A stretch of 64,000 nt of DNA, taken from assembly GCA_977020255.1 (NCBI GenBank), contig CDROCS010003447.1, forward strand, positions 62,001 through 126,000, in the 5' to 3' direction. How positions within the stretch are numbered: position 1 is the stretch's first letter; every line of letters begins with the position of its first letter. Source of the stretch: Obrimoposthia wandeli (lineage: Eukaryota). The notes under the pieces are model-generated. The model made no database searches and was not told where the DNA came from. It was given only the letters and a program-made list of their open reading frames with translations. Positions 5,001 through 61,663 of this stretch are shown piece after piece. Both the position numbers and the translations under genes were made by a program.

Positions 5001-7079
5001 TGCAGTCTGATTGGATCCATACAACTTCATAAACAAATTTCACCTTAAATTCACCGTACAGCTGTCAATATTTCTGGGAATTCTGCTTCTCGTCGGCATT
5101 TTATCAAGGAATTTCAAGCCAGACATCTTCAAAATGAGATCCCAAAGTCTCTATCAAATTTAGACATTATTTCCCTGGAGATTTGCTGAAATAGATGTAA
5201 CATTTTATTTAAATCTAACTATCCATCTGAATTCTCGCTTGAATTAGCTTTAACAATTAAATAATCAAGTCGTACCTATGAAATCATTCTAACTTCAGGA
5301 CATAAATGCTTCCAAGAATTTTGAATTATATCCTGGCTTTAATCGATAGTCAGTGCATTTTCATACCATTTCTGAGTTAGTAACCCTAATTTGAACGGAC
5401 CTCAGAAATCTGTAGAATTTAAATAGATCGTAAAACTGTACCAAAACTTTATCACTTTTAAAAAAAAATTAAACAAAAAAATGTAAAATTACGCTTGAAA
5501 TTGCCATAATATTCCTGTTGGACGTATTTCGGAAGCCGCTTAATCCCCATAATTCCCGCAGAAATGTCACAAGCGGCCCCGCGCGATTTAGCCTCTCAGA
5601 ACGGAGCCACTACCAAGCTCCAGGATCTTCCAAAGAACGAAGTAAGTGGTGCCAGAACTCGAATGTTACTCAACTAAAGACTTATTTAATAAACTTTATA
5701 AACTGAAGTGTGATATATATAAGAAAAGATTATTTTTATTTATTCAATTACCTTTTTATAGTTTAAATGCAAAATACCCGAACCCTTTATAATGACCTTG
5801 GGCATCTGCTGTAAATGCACATGATTAATTTCCAAATATATTTCCAACAGCTCATTGGTTTAAACTTTATTCTGTAGAATTCAAGGACAACTAGAATTAA
5901 TGTAATAACTGTTAATCTTATAATTATAAATTTCAAGTTTGAATCTATTTCAGTCACGGACATTTTTTCTTATTTTTGACATGCATAAAGTACGAAATTC
6001 TTTCTTATAGATATTATAAATTTAAATTTATTTGATATTTAGCCGGATTTTATTATGATAAAATCGATTTCATATCGATAATTCCAAAGAAATAATTCTA
6101 AAATTAAAATGATAAATTTAAATTGAAATTAACCAAACAAAATGTTCGAAGATATTTTCTACAATTTGTTTTAAACCGCATTTTTTATATGTTTTTATAA
6201 AATTAATCGACATGGGTTACTGGAATAATTTGTAAATAAAGCAATTAGGTAAAATTATTATTATTTTTTCAAGGCAATTAACTTTACAAATCTTTTTTTC
6301 AGTACATAAACTATTTTGAATTTGTATTTTATTGAAAATAAGTCGAAGATATCTGCGAAGCCTCCAACACCAACTCAACCAGGCGCTATTCTGACAAGTT
6401 CCCAGATGCATCGCAAATATGGAGAGTGCCGTGCAAAATGGGGATTTATTTCATTGCTCCAATCTCGAAAAGAATCGTGTGGATTCCCAATAGGGCTGGG
6501 GCAGAGGAGCGCATGAGAGAGCGTGTGAGAGCGCGCGAGACAAGAGGGATAGCTTCGTGAATGTTGCAGAACGAGGATGGATGGAGAATACGAAGAAGAA
6601 CATTTCAATTTGTGGTTAATTAATGCGTCCTCGAACCGTCATAGTGCTGTATGGAGTCTGAGTGCATCGCCAAGATTGTCTCACGAAGGGGGTAAAGAAG
6701 GCTGGCTAATTACCATCGGTGTGGGACCTCCCTAAACTTTCTGTCACCTTTGCAAATAGGAAAATGTGAGATTAGAACAATTTCAACAGCATTTTTTGAA
6801 CTAAATCTTCAGAAAGATTACTTTAGAAAACTGGAATAAAACCCAATTGTGAACTTCCTATGCACATTAGGGAGATTTAAGTTGGCTTTTATATTTGACC
6901 CATGAGTAATCTCAACCTAATATATGTGCTTATAAAATTTATTTTTACCTCTTAAATAACTGCAAAAAAGCTGCAATAACTGATATGTTTATTGATGTAT
7001 TGAAACATTCCATAATTCGTCCTTTATTTTACTTCTTACATTGAGATCAGATATGTCTCGAAATGAAAGAAACATAAAT

Positions 7080-37299: not shown

Positions 37300-38990
37300 G
37301 CTAAGAGAAATATGAAAAAAAATAAAAGTCATGTTTAATATTAATTAAAACTTTTAAACACAAACTGGATATTATCAAAATGTTGGGCTTTATTAAATAT
37401 AAAAAATACAGATTTTGCAATATAATTTTATCACATACAACAAAAATTACCAGGGGCCAACAATTATGAGAGTTACTAAAATAAAATAAATATTGTAGCG
37501 ATGGAAAATGTGATAAAATAAAAAGAATAAAAATAAACAAATTAAAAAACGGATCTGATTTTCAAATCACAATCTTGTGACGTTGGCATAAAAAATCTTA
37601 TTTATCTCCAAAATTTGAGGGTTTGTATACCCTTTCATTTACACGATGTGCCCGGGTCTTCCTGTCGGGGCTTTTGATTTAGATTTGTTTAATTGAAATG
37701 GGGTTTGGTCATTAAGATAATTTGCCCACTTAGGTTCCATTGGGTAACCCGTTTGTAGGTGTGTCTGCCTGCTAGTATTGCAAAGTTTAATGTACTTCTT
37801 ATACTATAGGAATTTTTTACCCAAAGGTAGGATTTTGATGAATCGTACATGTTTCAATTGGAAATAATTTATGCTTTAAAATGATGTTTTGTTCATTTAT
37901 GTGCAACTTTTAGATGTCAAGAAATTCTTATTTAAAGTTTAATTAATTGACGTTTTAATTAACAAAAATCACATTTTTGTGAATCTTTCTTAATACGAAA
38001 GTTGAAAATATTTCGAGCATACATGAAATAAATTGATATTTCATTACTAATTTATGTGTAGTTCAGATTTTGAGCAAAGGTTTTTCTTTAAATAGTTATT
38101 CGTAAAAAGGTGAATTTTACATAAAATTAATTAATATTTTAAAGATATTATTCTTTATTGTGGGTCACTTCATAGTATTTTAAAACGTATTTTAATCTGT
38201 ATGCATAACTTAAGCAATTGTTATTTATTTGTTTTATAATTTTTAAGGATAGTTATTTAAATATTTGTTATTTTAATGTTCTTTTAAATTCAACTCTAAC
38301 AAAAAGAATGTTGTAACAAAATCATTTTCATATACTTTAGTTGTTCATATTAATTTTGTAGATATATGGATTAAAACAAGACACTTGAAGATGAATTAAA
38401 AAAGAACTGGGGCTATATTATTTGGATTTACGAAGTGTCATTACAATGAATTGTTAAATTAATAAAGTGATAGCAACATACAACAGTCATAAGAAAATGA
38501 TTTATCCAATAAGAAAAACCTTGCTACTGAGAAAATTGAAATGCTAACGCATGCAATTATTACACCAAGAATTGATTTTCAAAATTCTTTTTTGTTTAAT
38601 AATCCAGTTTATCAATTAAATCGCTTGCAAATCAAAGCAGTCAGAATTAAATTAAAATAAAAGAAAAAGTGCTCGTACAAGTGAATATTTAATGAAGCTC
38701 CATTAGCTGGCCTTTAATGACAGAATTCAACTCCAGATCCTGCTGCAGTGAGCATGTATATGCATCTTAGGAGCAGCAATGACGACTGCAGATTGGCCAA
38801 GAAATTCTCAAATAACAAACAGAGAAAGGGGTTATTTGACAATTTATGCTTTGAATCTTTACAGCAATTCACCGATGAATATAACAAACTTTGAAAGATT
38901 CAAGAAGCAGCTGAAGTCTTTGATATTAAGAAAATACTACGAAGAATAATGGAAAACAGTAAGTGCTTCTGAGAAATAAATCAAAGAAAT
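37300..38990 (+). mobile_element. Decayed L2-clade LINE (RT domain to 3' end) in the GPCR intron
   Basis: MLTHAIITPRIDFQNSFLFNNPVYQLNRLQ (~38540) and the LH.L/NDRIQ segment are the L2 ORF2 tail. A GVPQGS-like remnant is near 37820. Collinear with the copies at 15.7-17.6 kb and 20.2-20.8 kb. Confidence 0.75.
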
Positions 38991-57490: not shown

Positions 57491-58160
57491 TTAAAGCATT
57501 TAATTAAGCACAAATAAACCCTAAAACTTAAACTTTCCGATTTTTTTCACCTCCTGACTCATTTTCTGCTCTATTTATGAATAAAAATTGAAAATATAAA
57601 AGTTAAATTACCTTTCCGTATCCATAGATGTGTTAAGGTTGAGAATTAAGAAAATTAAATATTTTAGTTGATTAAATACTAAAATAAAAATCCTTGAAAA
57701 CAAGGTCGAAAATTAAATTAAAATATTAATTTAAGTTTTAGAAGTAAAAATAGTGAAATATTAGGGTAAAATTAGGAGGACCACGAAGGTCGTGTATTAT
57801 GCGAAAATGTATAAAAGTTAAATTAATTAACCCAAAAGGGACAATTGCAAAAAGTAATTAAGGAAAATTAAGAAAGAAAAACGGTTAATTAAAACCGTCA
57901 ATCAAGAAGAAGAAAGGTAAGCACTTTTGCGTGCAATAACTAAAATTTATTTTTGCAGCTGTCAATTGATTGACATTGCATTATTCGCTCCGGTTTCGCT
58001 GAAGGAAGACTCAAAACAGCCGTCAACTGATTGACGTCCAGTGCCAATATATAAAGGCAGGGTTTCCAACTACAATCACAAATACGGGATCGACCACGGA
58101 ACCAGGTAGTGATTTGGTTAGAGTGGAGATAATTAATTTTATTGAAGGTCCCAGTCAACA

Positions 58161-59246
58161 TATATCCGAAAGTATATCCGAACGTATATCCGAAACGTAT
58201 ATCCGAAAAGTATAACCGAAAAGTATATCCGAAAGTATATCCGAAACGTATATCCGAAAAGTATATCCGAAAAGTGTATCCGAAAAGTATATCCGAAAAG
58301 TATAACCGAAAAGTATATCCGAAACGTATATCCGAAAAGTATAACCGAAAAGTATATCCGAAAGTATATCCGAAACGTATATCCGAAAAGTATATCCGAA
58401 AAGTGTATCCGAAAAGTATATCCGAAAAGTATATCCGAAAGTATATCCGAAAAGTATATCCGAAAAGTATATCCGAAAAGTGTATCCGAAAAGTATATCC
58501 GAAAAGTATAACCGAAAAGTATATCCGAAACGTATATCCGAAAAGTATAACCGAAAAGTATATCCGAAAGTATATCCGAAACGTATATCCGAAAAGTATA
58601 TCCGAAAAGTGTATCCGAAAAGTATATCCGAAAAGTATAACCGAAAAGTATATCCGAAAAGTATATCCGAAAAGTATATCCGAAAAGTATATCCGAAAAG
58701 TATAACCGAAAAGTATATCCGAAACGTATATCCGAAAAGTATAACCGAAAAGTATATCCGAAAGTATATCCGAAAAGTATAACCGAAAAGTGTAAAAAGT
58801 ATATCCAAAAAGTATATCCAAAAAGTATATTCGAAAAGTATAACCGAAAAGTATAACCCAAAAGTATATCCGAAAAGTATAACCGAAAAGTATATCCGAA
58901 AAGTATATCAAAGTATATCCGAAAAGTATAACCGAAAAGTATATCCGAAAGTATATCCGAAAGTATATCCGAAAGTATATCCGAAAAGTCCGAAAAGTAT
59001 ATCCGAAAAGTATATCCGAAAAGTATATGAAAAGTAAAAGTATCCGAAAAGTATAACCGAAACGTATATCCGAAAAGTATATCCGAAAAGTGTATCCGAA
59101 AAGTATATCCGAAAAGTATAACCGAAAAGTATATCCGAAAAGTATATCCGAAAAGTATATCCGAAAAGTATATCCGAAAAGTATATCCGAAAAGTATATC
59201 CGAAAAGTATATCCGAAAAGTATATCCGAAAAATATATCTGAAAAG
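58161..59246. repeat. 12-13 bp minisatellite (TATATCCGAAAAG and variants), ~1.1 kb, inside LTR B
   Basis: Read directly from the sequence. It explains all the FGYTFRIYFSDIL / KVYPKSISEKYIR ORFs. Confidence 0.97.
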
Positions 59247-59361
59247 AAGACAATATCGGGAAAGAAGACGATCCCACGGGCGCTCCACACGGATCTGCAT
59301 CAGACATCCCGCTAGTCGACGGAATCAGCGAGTAACTGGTAAGAACACAGACTAGGTTCAT

Positions 59362-59790
59362 TCATTGCCCCTAGTAGGCAATTAGGTTACTTTCATTACC
59401 CCTAGTTGGTAATTCTACGTTTAAAATAATAAACAAATTCATTACCCCTAGCTGGTAATTAGGATCTTTGTCTCTTTAGCACAATCATTGCCCCTAGTTG
59501 GTAATTAGGATCGGACCTTTATTCATTGTCCCCAGCGACAATTAGGAAACCTACCAGACGTTTTTCCCGTAAGATCATTGTCCCTAGCTGACAATTAGGT
59601 TCATTCATTGCCCCTAGTTGGTAATTCGGATAAATATTCATTGTCCCTAGTAGACAATTCGGTAAGACTCATTGTCCTCCAGCTTATAATACGGTTTGTT
59701 AATTGACCGTAATTGACTATTTGGAGTAAGTTTTTATTGTCATCTTGACAATTAGGTTTTAGGAGATCCCTTGTCTACAGTAGACAATTT
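59362..59790 (+). repeat. Array of about 11 short palindromic units (ATTRYC-N5-7-GRYAAT) with unique spacers, inside LTR B
   Basis: Stems start at 59364, 59395, 59441, 59487, 59525, 59577, 59607, 59640, 59671 (broken), 59736 and 59771. Confidence 0.85.
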
Positions 59791-60329
59791 GGGTCAAACA
59801 CACACAGAGAGAGTAAGGAACAAAGAAACATTTAGCCAGAGATAAGAAGTAGGAGCGAAGAAATTTAAGAGAGTTGCGTTATAGAGTAACCAACCTGAGT
59901 AAGAAGACTAAACCTAAGAAACTTAATCACCTGAACGTAAAATCGATACGTGGTTCATCCCCACTTCTTGTAGAGACTCACAGAAGTCCTTTAGGAATTT
60001 TATCATACTTTTTAGAAATACGTACATAAACGTATTGTGGTGTTAGTTACGTGAATTTTGAATAAACAATTTCCTACATTAGAACAAGTTGTTTTTACAC
60101 CCTTCAGACTAAGAGACATCAAATCAAATACCTTCAGATAGTACAAGAGATTAGGCAACCATAACACTAAGTAGGCCACGACCAACTTTAAGACCTGCTT
60201 CTAATCGAACTCACGTTGGGGCCCTCCGCACACTAAGAGGCTCTATACCAAGTTTCGTATAGAAACCCCAACAGATGCATCCGAAATGTCAGATAACATA
60301 TAAATAACTGCATTTTCGTCGTTTGCTAT

Positions 60330-61663
60330 TGTTAGGATTAGGATTCTAATAATTATGAAAAATTAATTATTTATATATCAAAATAAATCCTTGAAAACAA
60401 GGTTAAAAATAAAATAAAATTTTAAAATAAGAAATTAAAAAATTAAATAACAAAATTATTAAGAATATTTGGGACCTTGGAAGGTCATGTTTGATGCGTA
60501 GTATATAGTAAATATTAAATCTAGTAAAAGGGCCAGTTAGAGAAAATCCAACTTAATTAAGAAGAATCAGAGACAATTAAAAAGCACTCAAAGAAAAACG
60601 GACTCCGAAAGCAGTCCATTTGACCAAGAAGAAGAGCCGCTGAGAAATAAACCAGCCGCCAGACAGTTTCAATTAATAACTGGGAGCGAAGCAGCTTTCA
60701 TTGTGATCCCGGTAAGTGGAAATTGCAACAGTGCACTTAAACTAATTGTTCTCATTCAGATCGGCTGGCTCTTGATAAAAGTGGAAAATACAGGAATTGT
60801 TCGCACAACATTTCAGAAATCAGTTAAAAGTTAAAATCAGTTGCAACCTAAATCGGAGCCGACTAAAGCGAAGTGAAAAAACAAAAAGGTAACGATTTAG
60901 AAAAGAAATTCATTATTCCGATTCCAGAAATACCCTATATCACCGAAAGCCGATATTCTCCAACGCAATCACAGAGGCCGAAGACCGGATTTCGCAGCCA
61001 AACGAAGCAGACTACGGATTGGAGGAAGGTAAGAAAGGCAAATTCATTTATCGAATTGAAAAAAATGGACCCATAATTTCGTTTATCATATATTTATCGA
61101 ATTGAAAAAGAATTGACCTATAATTCCGTTTGTCATAAATATCGAATTGAAAGAGAATTGACCCATAATTTAATAGTAATTTCGTCGACAAGAATTGTCC
61201 CGTATTTTTAGAGCAATTAACTCTATAAACTTTACAACTTAACTTGCCCATATTTTAGAGCGAAAAGCTCTCTAAAATCAACGAAACAGACAACGCCCAT
61301 ATTTTTAGAGTAAAGACTCCAGTGAATAAAAACCCCAAAATTAAAATCGATACGTGGAACATCCCCACTTGTGTAGAGACTTTGTAAAAAGTATTTAGGA
61401 TTAGTTTTGAAATTTTTAGAACGTGTTTAGAACGTAACTTAGAGTGTTTTGGAGAATAAAAGATTTCCTACAACTAGACAGCGTTGTTACAGACCCTCAC
61501 ACTTAGACATAACAAACCTTCAAATAAGAATTGAGACAGGCAAGCACAACTTAAGTAGGCCACAAACAACTGCAAGTCCTGCTGCTATAGAACTCACGTT
61601 GGGGCCCTCCATCAGAGGATCTATATCTAAACTCCAAAGTAGTTTCATATAGAAACCCAAACA
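60330..61663 (+). mobile_element. Solo LTR, Gypsy-type family copy C (1334 bp), flanked by a 56-bp direct repeat
   Basis: Starts TGTTAGGATTAGG and ends GAAACCCAAACA, with AATAAA at 61455. 60274-60329 matches 61664-61719 at 54/56. It contains a ~46-bp repeat in three copies at ~61048-61170. Confidence 0.9.

Follow-up and report, generated by a model that had tools for sequence, protein, structure and literature searches.

The 64,000 nucleotides of the Obrimoposthia wandeli genome analysed here (contig CDROCS010003447.1, positions 62,001 to 126,000; referred to below as the window) contain, inside a long terminal repeat (LTR), a row of short hairpins with varying stem sequences. The questions raised by this locus are whether the pairing of these stems has been kept by selection, on which strand, and which step in the life of the element such an array could serve.

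The array lies in a solo LTR (LTR B, 57631..60273, plus strand, as are the other features listed here) of a Burro-like giant Gypsy family, with TG...CA termini, a 4-bp target duplication (GATG) and ends which both match the paired LTRs of full-length copies. A TATA-like box at about LTR position 180 (57810..57817) is the likely promoter, the motif being present at LTR positions 171-181 in seven of seven LTR starts examined, and a second TATA-like box (58048..58056), also upstream of the array, may act as an alternative promoter. They are followed by a 13-nt satellite of 85 copies (58161..59246), which is lineage-specific and has other repeats in its place in close relatives, a 5' splice-donor-like site, CTG/GTAAGA, with the predicted cut after CTG (59336..59344), the array itself, a family-wide conserved box (59942..59964; 17,708 copies, against none for the control), and a conserved AATAAA (60061..60066), the likely poly(A) signal, which in 29 of 30 LTRs follows the box at a distance of 106-121 nt. 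The first part of the box (59942-59951) recurs just before the 3' LTR in full elements (L036, 4920-4960), a place without a visible purine tract of the ordinary kind. Near the 5' ends of LTR B (57917-57958) and of a second LTR, A (60714-60760), donor-acceptor pairs about 42-47 nt long possibly represent a mini-intron, which, if real, would place the transcription start close to the first TATA box. Between 57631 and 64000, LTRs of different types follow one another in tandem, namely B, then A (60330-61663) and, from 61894 on, a truncated element; the same 55-nt flank comes after both B and A, and like stacks were found at other loci (L031-L033).

In all three full copies extracted, the paired LTRs are 20.7-21.7 kb apart, and the pairs are 99.5-100% identical, indicating that the family moved recently. 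One full copy contains an open frame of 5,461 codons, in which Pfam recognises a CCHC knuckle, a mononegavirus-type fusion protein, two proteases, BIR, RING, reverse transcriptase (RT), RNase H (RH), integrase (IN) and a dual-specificity phosphatase; a ubiquitin-like stretch was seen by eye only. The Gag knuckle sits in an RG/N-rich region. An LTR element of more than 20 kb with one polyprotein of about 5,000 aa, a Gag-CCHC, an in-frame mononegavirus-type fusion protein, BIR and the order PR-RT-RH-IN matches the published layout of the Burro-like giant Gypsy elements. This architecture, together with a GC content of about 30%, suggests a planarian as the probable host. The primer-binding site (PBS; element L034, 5131-5147) is one which we take to resemble the 3' end of elongator tRNA-Met.

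The array occupies positions 59364-59789 and consists of 12 hairpin units, with left arms starting at 59364, 59395, 59441, 59487, 59525, 59577, 59607, 59640, 59671, 59702, 59736 and 59771; the earlier note on this DNA had recognised the units themselves but counted about 11. Units 1-8 (59364..59658) have a 6-bp stem, ATTRYC/GRYAAT, and a loop of the form C-N-N-N-G-Y-(W). Units 9 and 10 (59671..59720) are decayed in the window copy only, being intact in its close relatives, and unit 11 (59736..59752) has a shortened loop. Unit 12 (59765..59795), with a longer stem and a 3-nt loop, is the most stable unit, has a different fold, and carries inherited mismatches in some lineages. The stem tally in the note is reproduced by our count of seven perfect 6-bp stems, ATTGCC/GGCAAT once, ATTACC/GGTAAT twice and ATTGTC/GACAAT four times, as are the two units with ATTGCC/GGTAAT, each of which has one G-U pair on the plus strand. 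The start-to-start distances, given there as 30-65 nt, are 30-52 nt, the larger value arising only if unit 10 is skipped. The spacers (11-33 nt), described as unique, are not fully so: they are related to each other, the segments 59362-59415 and 59575-59627 are 87% alike, and the array is a decayed old tandem repeat with a period of 31.

The 461 nt analysed hold seven perfect stems of at least 6 bp with loops of 4-10 nt, whereas 1000 dinucleotide shuffles average 0.77 and only one of them reaches seven; with G-U pairs allowed there are 14 stems against 7.3, and 25 of 1000 shuffles are as high. A cluster elsewhere in the window (37700-38300) is denser in short perfect hairpins, with 10 per 460 nt at about 37.7-37.9 kb, the densest of the window. 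Both strands of the array region fold better than shuffles (z of -2.3 for the plus and -2.9 for the minus strand), so that energy alone gives no choice of strand.

Genome-wide, the unit pattern has 57,173 matches, compared with 7 for a reversed control. The anchor of the hairpin-bearing clade was found 5,228 times, i.e. in about 5,200 of about 17,700 family LTRs, and the absence of this array from about 70% of the family's LTRs indicates that it is dispensable or replaceable. We gathered 126 array loci, 112 of them distinct, with 6-26 small units over several hundred nucleotides; 83 arrays belong to a sub-clade in which the units align one to one. The 19-nt unit is retained while lineages replace spacers and periods. 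Elements with unrelated LTR repeats encode proteins mostly 85-100% identical by segment, with the same knuckle. Most LTR types (L043-L072) have a tandem repeat of their own in or near the slot upstream of the box, with units of 19-57 nt in up to about 50 copies, many without clear hairpins. Most types also carry, just upstream of the box, one to several copies of a second hairpin class, AGAG-loop-CTCT (61185-61325 in the window), which is reduced in the B type. Two other abundant genome repeats resemble the array unit, one of them occurring in inverted pairs 0.7-3 kb apart, like transposon ends.

The comparison of orthologous units provides the main evidence that the stems are under selection. 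Five stem states are found at an orthologous unit, GTC/GAC, GTC/GGC, GCC/GGC, GCC/GGT and ACC/GGT; all five occur at unit 3, which nevertheless has its own loop in 81 of 83 arrays, and unit 4 has a G-U pair in 61 of 83. A tree of all 83 arrays was built without the stem columns, and stem changes in units 1-11 were counted on its branches. All 18 changes on internal branches keep pairing (nine from a Watson-Crick pair to G-U, six from G-U to Watson-Crick, and three double changes), and the inherited changes run via G-U and never via A-C. On terminal branches, where the changes include noise from indel errors of the assembly, 12 of 33 break pairing, six of these in one decayed copy and three in the window's own. 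New G-U states come from either arm, six from the right and three from the left; both A-to-G and C-to-T are among the steps that make them, and the steps that restore Watson-Crick pairs mirror these. Non-stem columns lean 1.2-1.3-fold to such G-U-making transitions, which gives P of about 0.005 for nine of nine, or 0.017 for the seven distinct unit-pair states. Stem pairs 1-3 and 6 of units 1-11 have no inherited change, compared with 0.79 per column in the spacers and 0.35 in the downstream LTR; the variation is confined to pairs 4 and 5.

A pairing test was performed on units 1-7 of 38 arrays, picked for diversity from the 83 with the most decayed copy and near-duplicates omitted. All 1595 cells are paired and seven pairs have changed on both sides, a result reached by none of 500 shuffles; slid controls gave no pair with changes on both sides, and a shifted register, in which a right arm is matched with the next left arm, gave 96.3% pairing and three such pairs, with 277 of 500 shuffles as high. 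Related sequences can exceed the shuffle baseline of this test, and the tree count was added because of this vulnerability. Genome-wide counts, which are inflated by copying and not independent, show G-U 4,651 times and A-C 74 times at pair 4, and U-G 1,975 times and C-A 170 times at pair 5. The 74 A-C cases are scattered and make up 0.13% of units, the level that later mutation or assembly error would give, and a single inherited form of unit 12, with its longer inner stem, accounts for 77 of the first 100 C-A matches.

According to the earlier note, the stem variants would lose their meaning if they descended from three duplicated founder units. In its plain form this explanation fails, as one and the same unit changes its stem state between lineages while its own loop is kept. 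Conversion may nevertheless have copied a small number of original mutations from unit to unit, and many of the counted changes could go back to a few mutations multiplied in this way or by recombination, which puts the number of independent events between a floor of two compensatory double changes and an upper value of about eight. However, exchanging arms between units should produce A-C hybrids no less readily than G-U ones, yet units 1-11 contain no inherited A-C; the one-sidedness therefore survives this caveat. The covariation at orthologous units, together with the asymmetry between G-U and A-C, supports the proposed selection for stem-loops, and we regard selection on a plus-strand fold, as read from the sequences, as highly probable. 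That G-U was kept and A-C was not fits a fold of the plus strand rather than a double-stranded DNA site. The asymmetry fixes the strand and not the chemistry, since G-T wobbles are tolerated in DNA hairpins too, and covariation alone does not distinguish a hairpin from an in-register duplex of two RNA copies.

The loops combine fixed and free positions. Among 20 seven-base loop types present in at least two arrays, C is at position 1 in 18 and G at position 5 in 19, all exceptions belonging to unit 12, and positions 2-4 differ between lineages. Within the sub-clade of 83 arrays the loop is near-constant, with one inherited change in 23 columns where about eight were expected. The CTAG palindrome is limited to some lineages, others having CGAAGTT, CACAGTT, CATCGTT, CCTCGTT or CAGAGTT. 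In a genome-wide search for loss of C1, about 10 of the first 100 of 1,388 matches were family units by eye, nearly all of them C-to-T, the search being swamped by another repeat; in a search for loss of G5, about 21 of the first 100 of 817 were family units, and about 60 belonged to another repeat in inverted pairs. By this estimate by eye C1 and G5 both look fixed, with losses near the level of later mutation, and no paired change between them was seen among the first 100 matches of either search. A cross-loop pair between C1 and G5 is possible; the energy model disfavours it, and in NMR work a C-G closing pair prevented such a pair (PMC3884659).

Units 1-8 each fold at about -3.6 to -5.9 kcal/mol, mostly no better than their own shuffles, and unit 4 prefers another hairpin. 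In an equilibrium model of the naked RNA of 13 arrays, the mean probability of in-unit pairing is 0.38-0.85 at a span of 26 nt and 0.01-0.23 at 150 nt, the in-unit stems losing to inter-unit pairing once long-range pairs are allowed. As evolution nevertheless marks the in-unit register, co-transcriptional folding with a bound protein, or same-unit pairing of two RNA copies, is suggested. Several other identities of the unit were considered. A hairpin of loop and tail (CCUAGUU with AAUUAGG) is, by eye, not kept across lineages, and a small-RNA precursor was rejected since 6-bp stems are too short for Dicer. The iron-responsive element has a CAGUGH loop and a bulged C five pairs below, while the middle of the array loop varies freely, and Rfam gave no match to this element at E up to 5; its only match of any kind was a chance one outside the array. 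A kissing-loop dimerisation site has a conserved self-complementary loop, and CUAG is present in only part of the lineages.

The position of the array in the transcript may be approached through the motifs around it. The GTAAGA donor pointed out in the note is present, with its GT at 59339-59340, 25 nt before unit 1, and GGTAAG or GGTGAG precedes the first unit by 23-33 nt at 119 of 126 loci, or 105 of 112 if only distinct arrays are counted, i.e. the donor is kept at a near-constant distance in both its GTAAG and GTGAG forms. The order within the LTR is TATA-like box, donor, array and AATAAA. The note had placed the array in R; the motifs argue for this, and the TATA-like box upstream, the AATAAA downstream and the donor before unit 1 suggest that the array probably lies in R, at the head of an intron. 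An acceptor-like AG is found 0-2 nt before the start codons of three small RING genes preceding the 3' LTR, and 9-11 acceptor-like TTTCAG repeats, possibly cis- or trans-splice acceptors for the polyprotein message, stand right behind the PBS (L034, about 5170-5460), so that the donor has plausible partners. In four sequencing runs, none of them an RNA run, the depth tracks repeat copy number and the joints are skips of array units, with no donor joint among those listed. No poly(A)-tailed retrocopy was found behind the conserved AATAAA, a result which says little either way. An AATAAA inside the array (59428) was rejected as poly(A) signal, being present in only 30 of 112 arrays. An Arg-rich frame of 225 codons before the 3' LTR, considered as a Rev-like gene, overlaps two RING genes in another frame, has no Pfam match, is open in only one of three copies translated and is a probable by-product; no Rev-like gene was identified in the element copies examined.

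From these sequence features we hold the chances to be about even that the array is a multivalent RNA dock for a protein controlling RNA processing at the donor 25 nt upstream. Transcription would start upstream of the array, which would accordingly be part of R and present at both ends of the RNA, its 5' copy opening an intron whose removal would yield the mRNAs of the small 3' RING genes. The hairpins, each of them weak, would fold during transcription and be held by a protein, probably the host's, which may read the loop C and G together with the fixed stem ends, and the many copies of the unit would provide avidity. The bound array could then set how often the donor is used, and thereby how much of the RNA stays unspliced as genomic RNA, how this RNA is exported, or whether the poly(A) site of the 5' or of the 3' LTR is used. 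A structured RNA conserved by pairing, as expected of an export or splicing-control element, is found here. Rather more tentatively, LTR lineages with almost the same proteins may diversify by means of an exchangeable RNA cassette behind the donor, each array recruiting a different host RNA-binding protein that would set splicing, export or 3' end choice by tissue or stage; if so, enhancer turnover would have a counterpart carried out at the RNA level. Present in about 57,000 copies, the hairpin might in addition deplete its host ligand by titration.

An unlikely but still substantial alternative is that the array is a scaffold for dimerisation or packaging, in which the units of two genome copies pair in register, or the Gag knuckle and its RG-rich region bind the loop G many times. 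An in-register duplex predicts the same covariation as a hairpin, the CUAG of B-type loops is self-complementary and folding predicts inter-unit pairing; however, CUAG is missing in many lineages. For Gag binding, which the note had listed among other roles, speak the CCHC knuckle in its RG/N-rich region and the fact that the 5' copy of the array would occur only in unspliced RNA. A packaging signal (psi) is shared by all elements with the same nucleocapsid and usually lies behind the PBS, whereas the LTR array lies upstream of it, and the knuckle is identical in all five elements in which it was found, one of which has an LTR lacking such a unit. The usual place of psi is instead occupied by a different hairpin array, common to four of five leaders examined and present in variant form in the fifth, although these elements have different LTR types. 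This leader array (L034, about 5470-6620, and the leaders of four other elements) has TCGAG/CTCGA stems, a frequent TCGGG (G-U) variant, a 49-nt period and 8-19 copies, and is the better candidate for a packaging signal, of which the LTR array would be a poor sole representative. Near-identical proteins combined with unrelated repeats in the slot, and a common hairpin array behind the PBS, make Gag packaging less likely than control of RNA processing.

Decidedly less probable is a set of double-stranded DNA sites, an enhancer or an insulator like the 12 Su(Hw) sites of gypsy, with dyads kept perfect by template switching. The layout resembles the gypsy insulator, with 12 sites in 340 bp and AT-rich spacers (PMC2374998), fixed outer bases and fixed spacing would suit a dimeric protein, LTR lineages swap the slot as enhancers turn over, and template switching can make paired changes without selection (PMC8794818). 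However, each of the same three half-sites can stand in either arm, but the combinations inherited in units 1-11 are restricted to those that pair or wobble when read as plus strand, and the mirror-image A-C is not among them, though either arm can change first. Template switching might account for the three double changes; it yields perfect pairs and not long-lived G-U states such as that of unit 4. The HMG-box half-sites offered in the note as a DNA alternative fare no better, as ATTGT is absent from the left arm of 5 of the 12 window units (four by stem variant and one decayed), and the strand asymmetry would be left without a cause if the target were DNA.

It is very unlikely that the hairpins act after export or on another molecule, whether in the control of translation or stability, as a decoy for host silencing or an RNA-binding protein, or as a fold of single-stranded plus-strand DNA during reverse transcription. 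The array would indeed also sit in the 3' UTR of every transcript, and the tolerance of G-T wobbles would suit a DNA hairpin; a role after export leaves the fixed donor distance of 23-33 nt unexplained, and plus-strand DNA is single-stranded only briefly. Least probable of these readings, and already strained, is a neutral satellite, in which the slot merely collects tandem repeats and a near-palindromic founder unit was shaped by conversion and strand-biased mutation such as A-to-I editing: most LTR types do hold some 19-57-nt repeat there, many without clear hairpins, and only two stem pairs vary, but the unit is kept while spacers and periods are replaced, no single bias explains A-to-G, C-to-T and the mirror-image restoring steps together, and one-arm swaps would give A-C as readily as G-U. 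The note was right to reject a CRISPR array, the spacers being 11-33 nt long and mutually related inside an animal LTR, with no CRISPR repeat match in Rfam and none of the even unique spacers, cas genes or prokaryotic host of such arrays.

Control of RNA processing by a docked protein thus remains the preferred reading. Little is known of how unspliced RNA is retained, terminated and exported in those invertebrate Gypsy elements that have spliced accessory genes, and the array is a small, repeated and testable candidate with natural compensatory variants at hand, suggesting that LTR subfamilies may differ not only in promoters but also in control at the RNA level. At several units, moreover, the passage of stems between Watson-Crick pairs via G-U is recorded in nature with unusual completeness. 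Structured cis-elements in retroelement RNA are of a known kind; no description of a lineage-swappable tandem hairpin array with such compensation was found in Rfam or, at the level of titles and the first part of abstracts, in the literature outside subscription journals.

Among known systems, the closest in element structure is Burro/GYPSM1 of planarians, which exceeds 20 kb, has one polyprotein of about 5,000 aa and thousands of copies, and encodes, besides Gag-CCHC, BIR, PR, RT, RH and IN, a mononegavirus-like fusion protein placed in frame between gag and pol (PMC6431247). Size, polyprotein layout and high copy number are common to both, while the window family has one knuckle instead of two or three, as well as a dual-specificity phosphatase and 3' RING genes. 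Tandem repeats are marked in a figure legend of that review, and its passages on these elements make no mention of a hairpin array in the LTR (PMC6431247); passages of PMC8532177 and PMC11410931 add nothing on LTR structure. The gypsy insulator is likewise built of about 12 degenerate sites, which are separated by AT-rich spacers, span about 400 bp and lie close to the 5' end of a Gypsy element (PMC2374998), but it is a DNA element in the leader, whereas the window array lies inside the LTR and its variation follows single-strand pairing. Insulators of this type and HMG/Sox site arrays would be expected to vary alike on both strands and to keep a core motif; the G-U versus A-C asymmetry and the loss of ATTGT in many units set the array apart from them. 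Pseudotriloop hairpins, known from HBV epsilon, the IRE, TAR and a foamy-virus hairpin, resemble the array loop in that C1 and G5 are fixed, the three bases between them are free and a pyrimidine stands on the 3' side (PMC3884659). They are hexaloops with one 3' bulge and a G-C closing pair (PMC3884659), whereas the array loop has 7 nt, two 3' bases and a C-G closing pair, and the loop length and closing pair place it outside this class.

The nearest parallels to the proposed function are retroviral. Foamy viruses have a donor that lies upstream of the poly(A) signal and, by binding U1, blocks 5' polyadenylation; at the 3' LTR an RNA structure releases this block (PMC3694450). Like the window LTR, the foamy-virus R region combines a donor, a structured RNA and AATAAA in both LTRs (PMC3694450), while the structure in the window is a tandem array of small units, variable between lineages and known from sequence. 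Retroviral export and splicing elements, such as CTE, the RSV direct repeats, NRS, RRE and RemRE, are structured cis-elements by which viral or host proteins handle unspliced RNA, as the array may be; unlike its many small units, however, they consist of one or two larger folds (PMC9143442).
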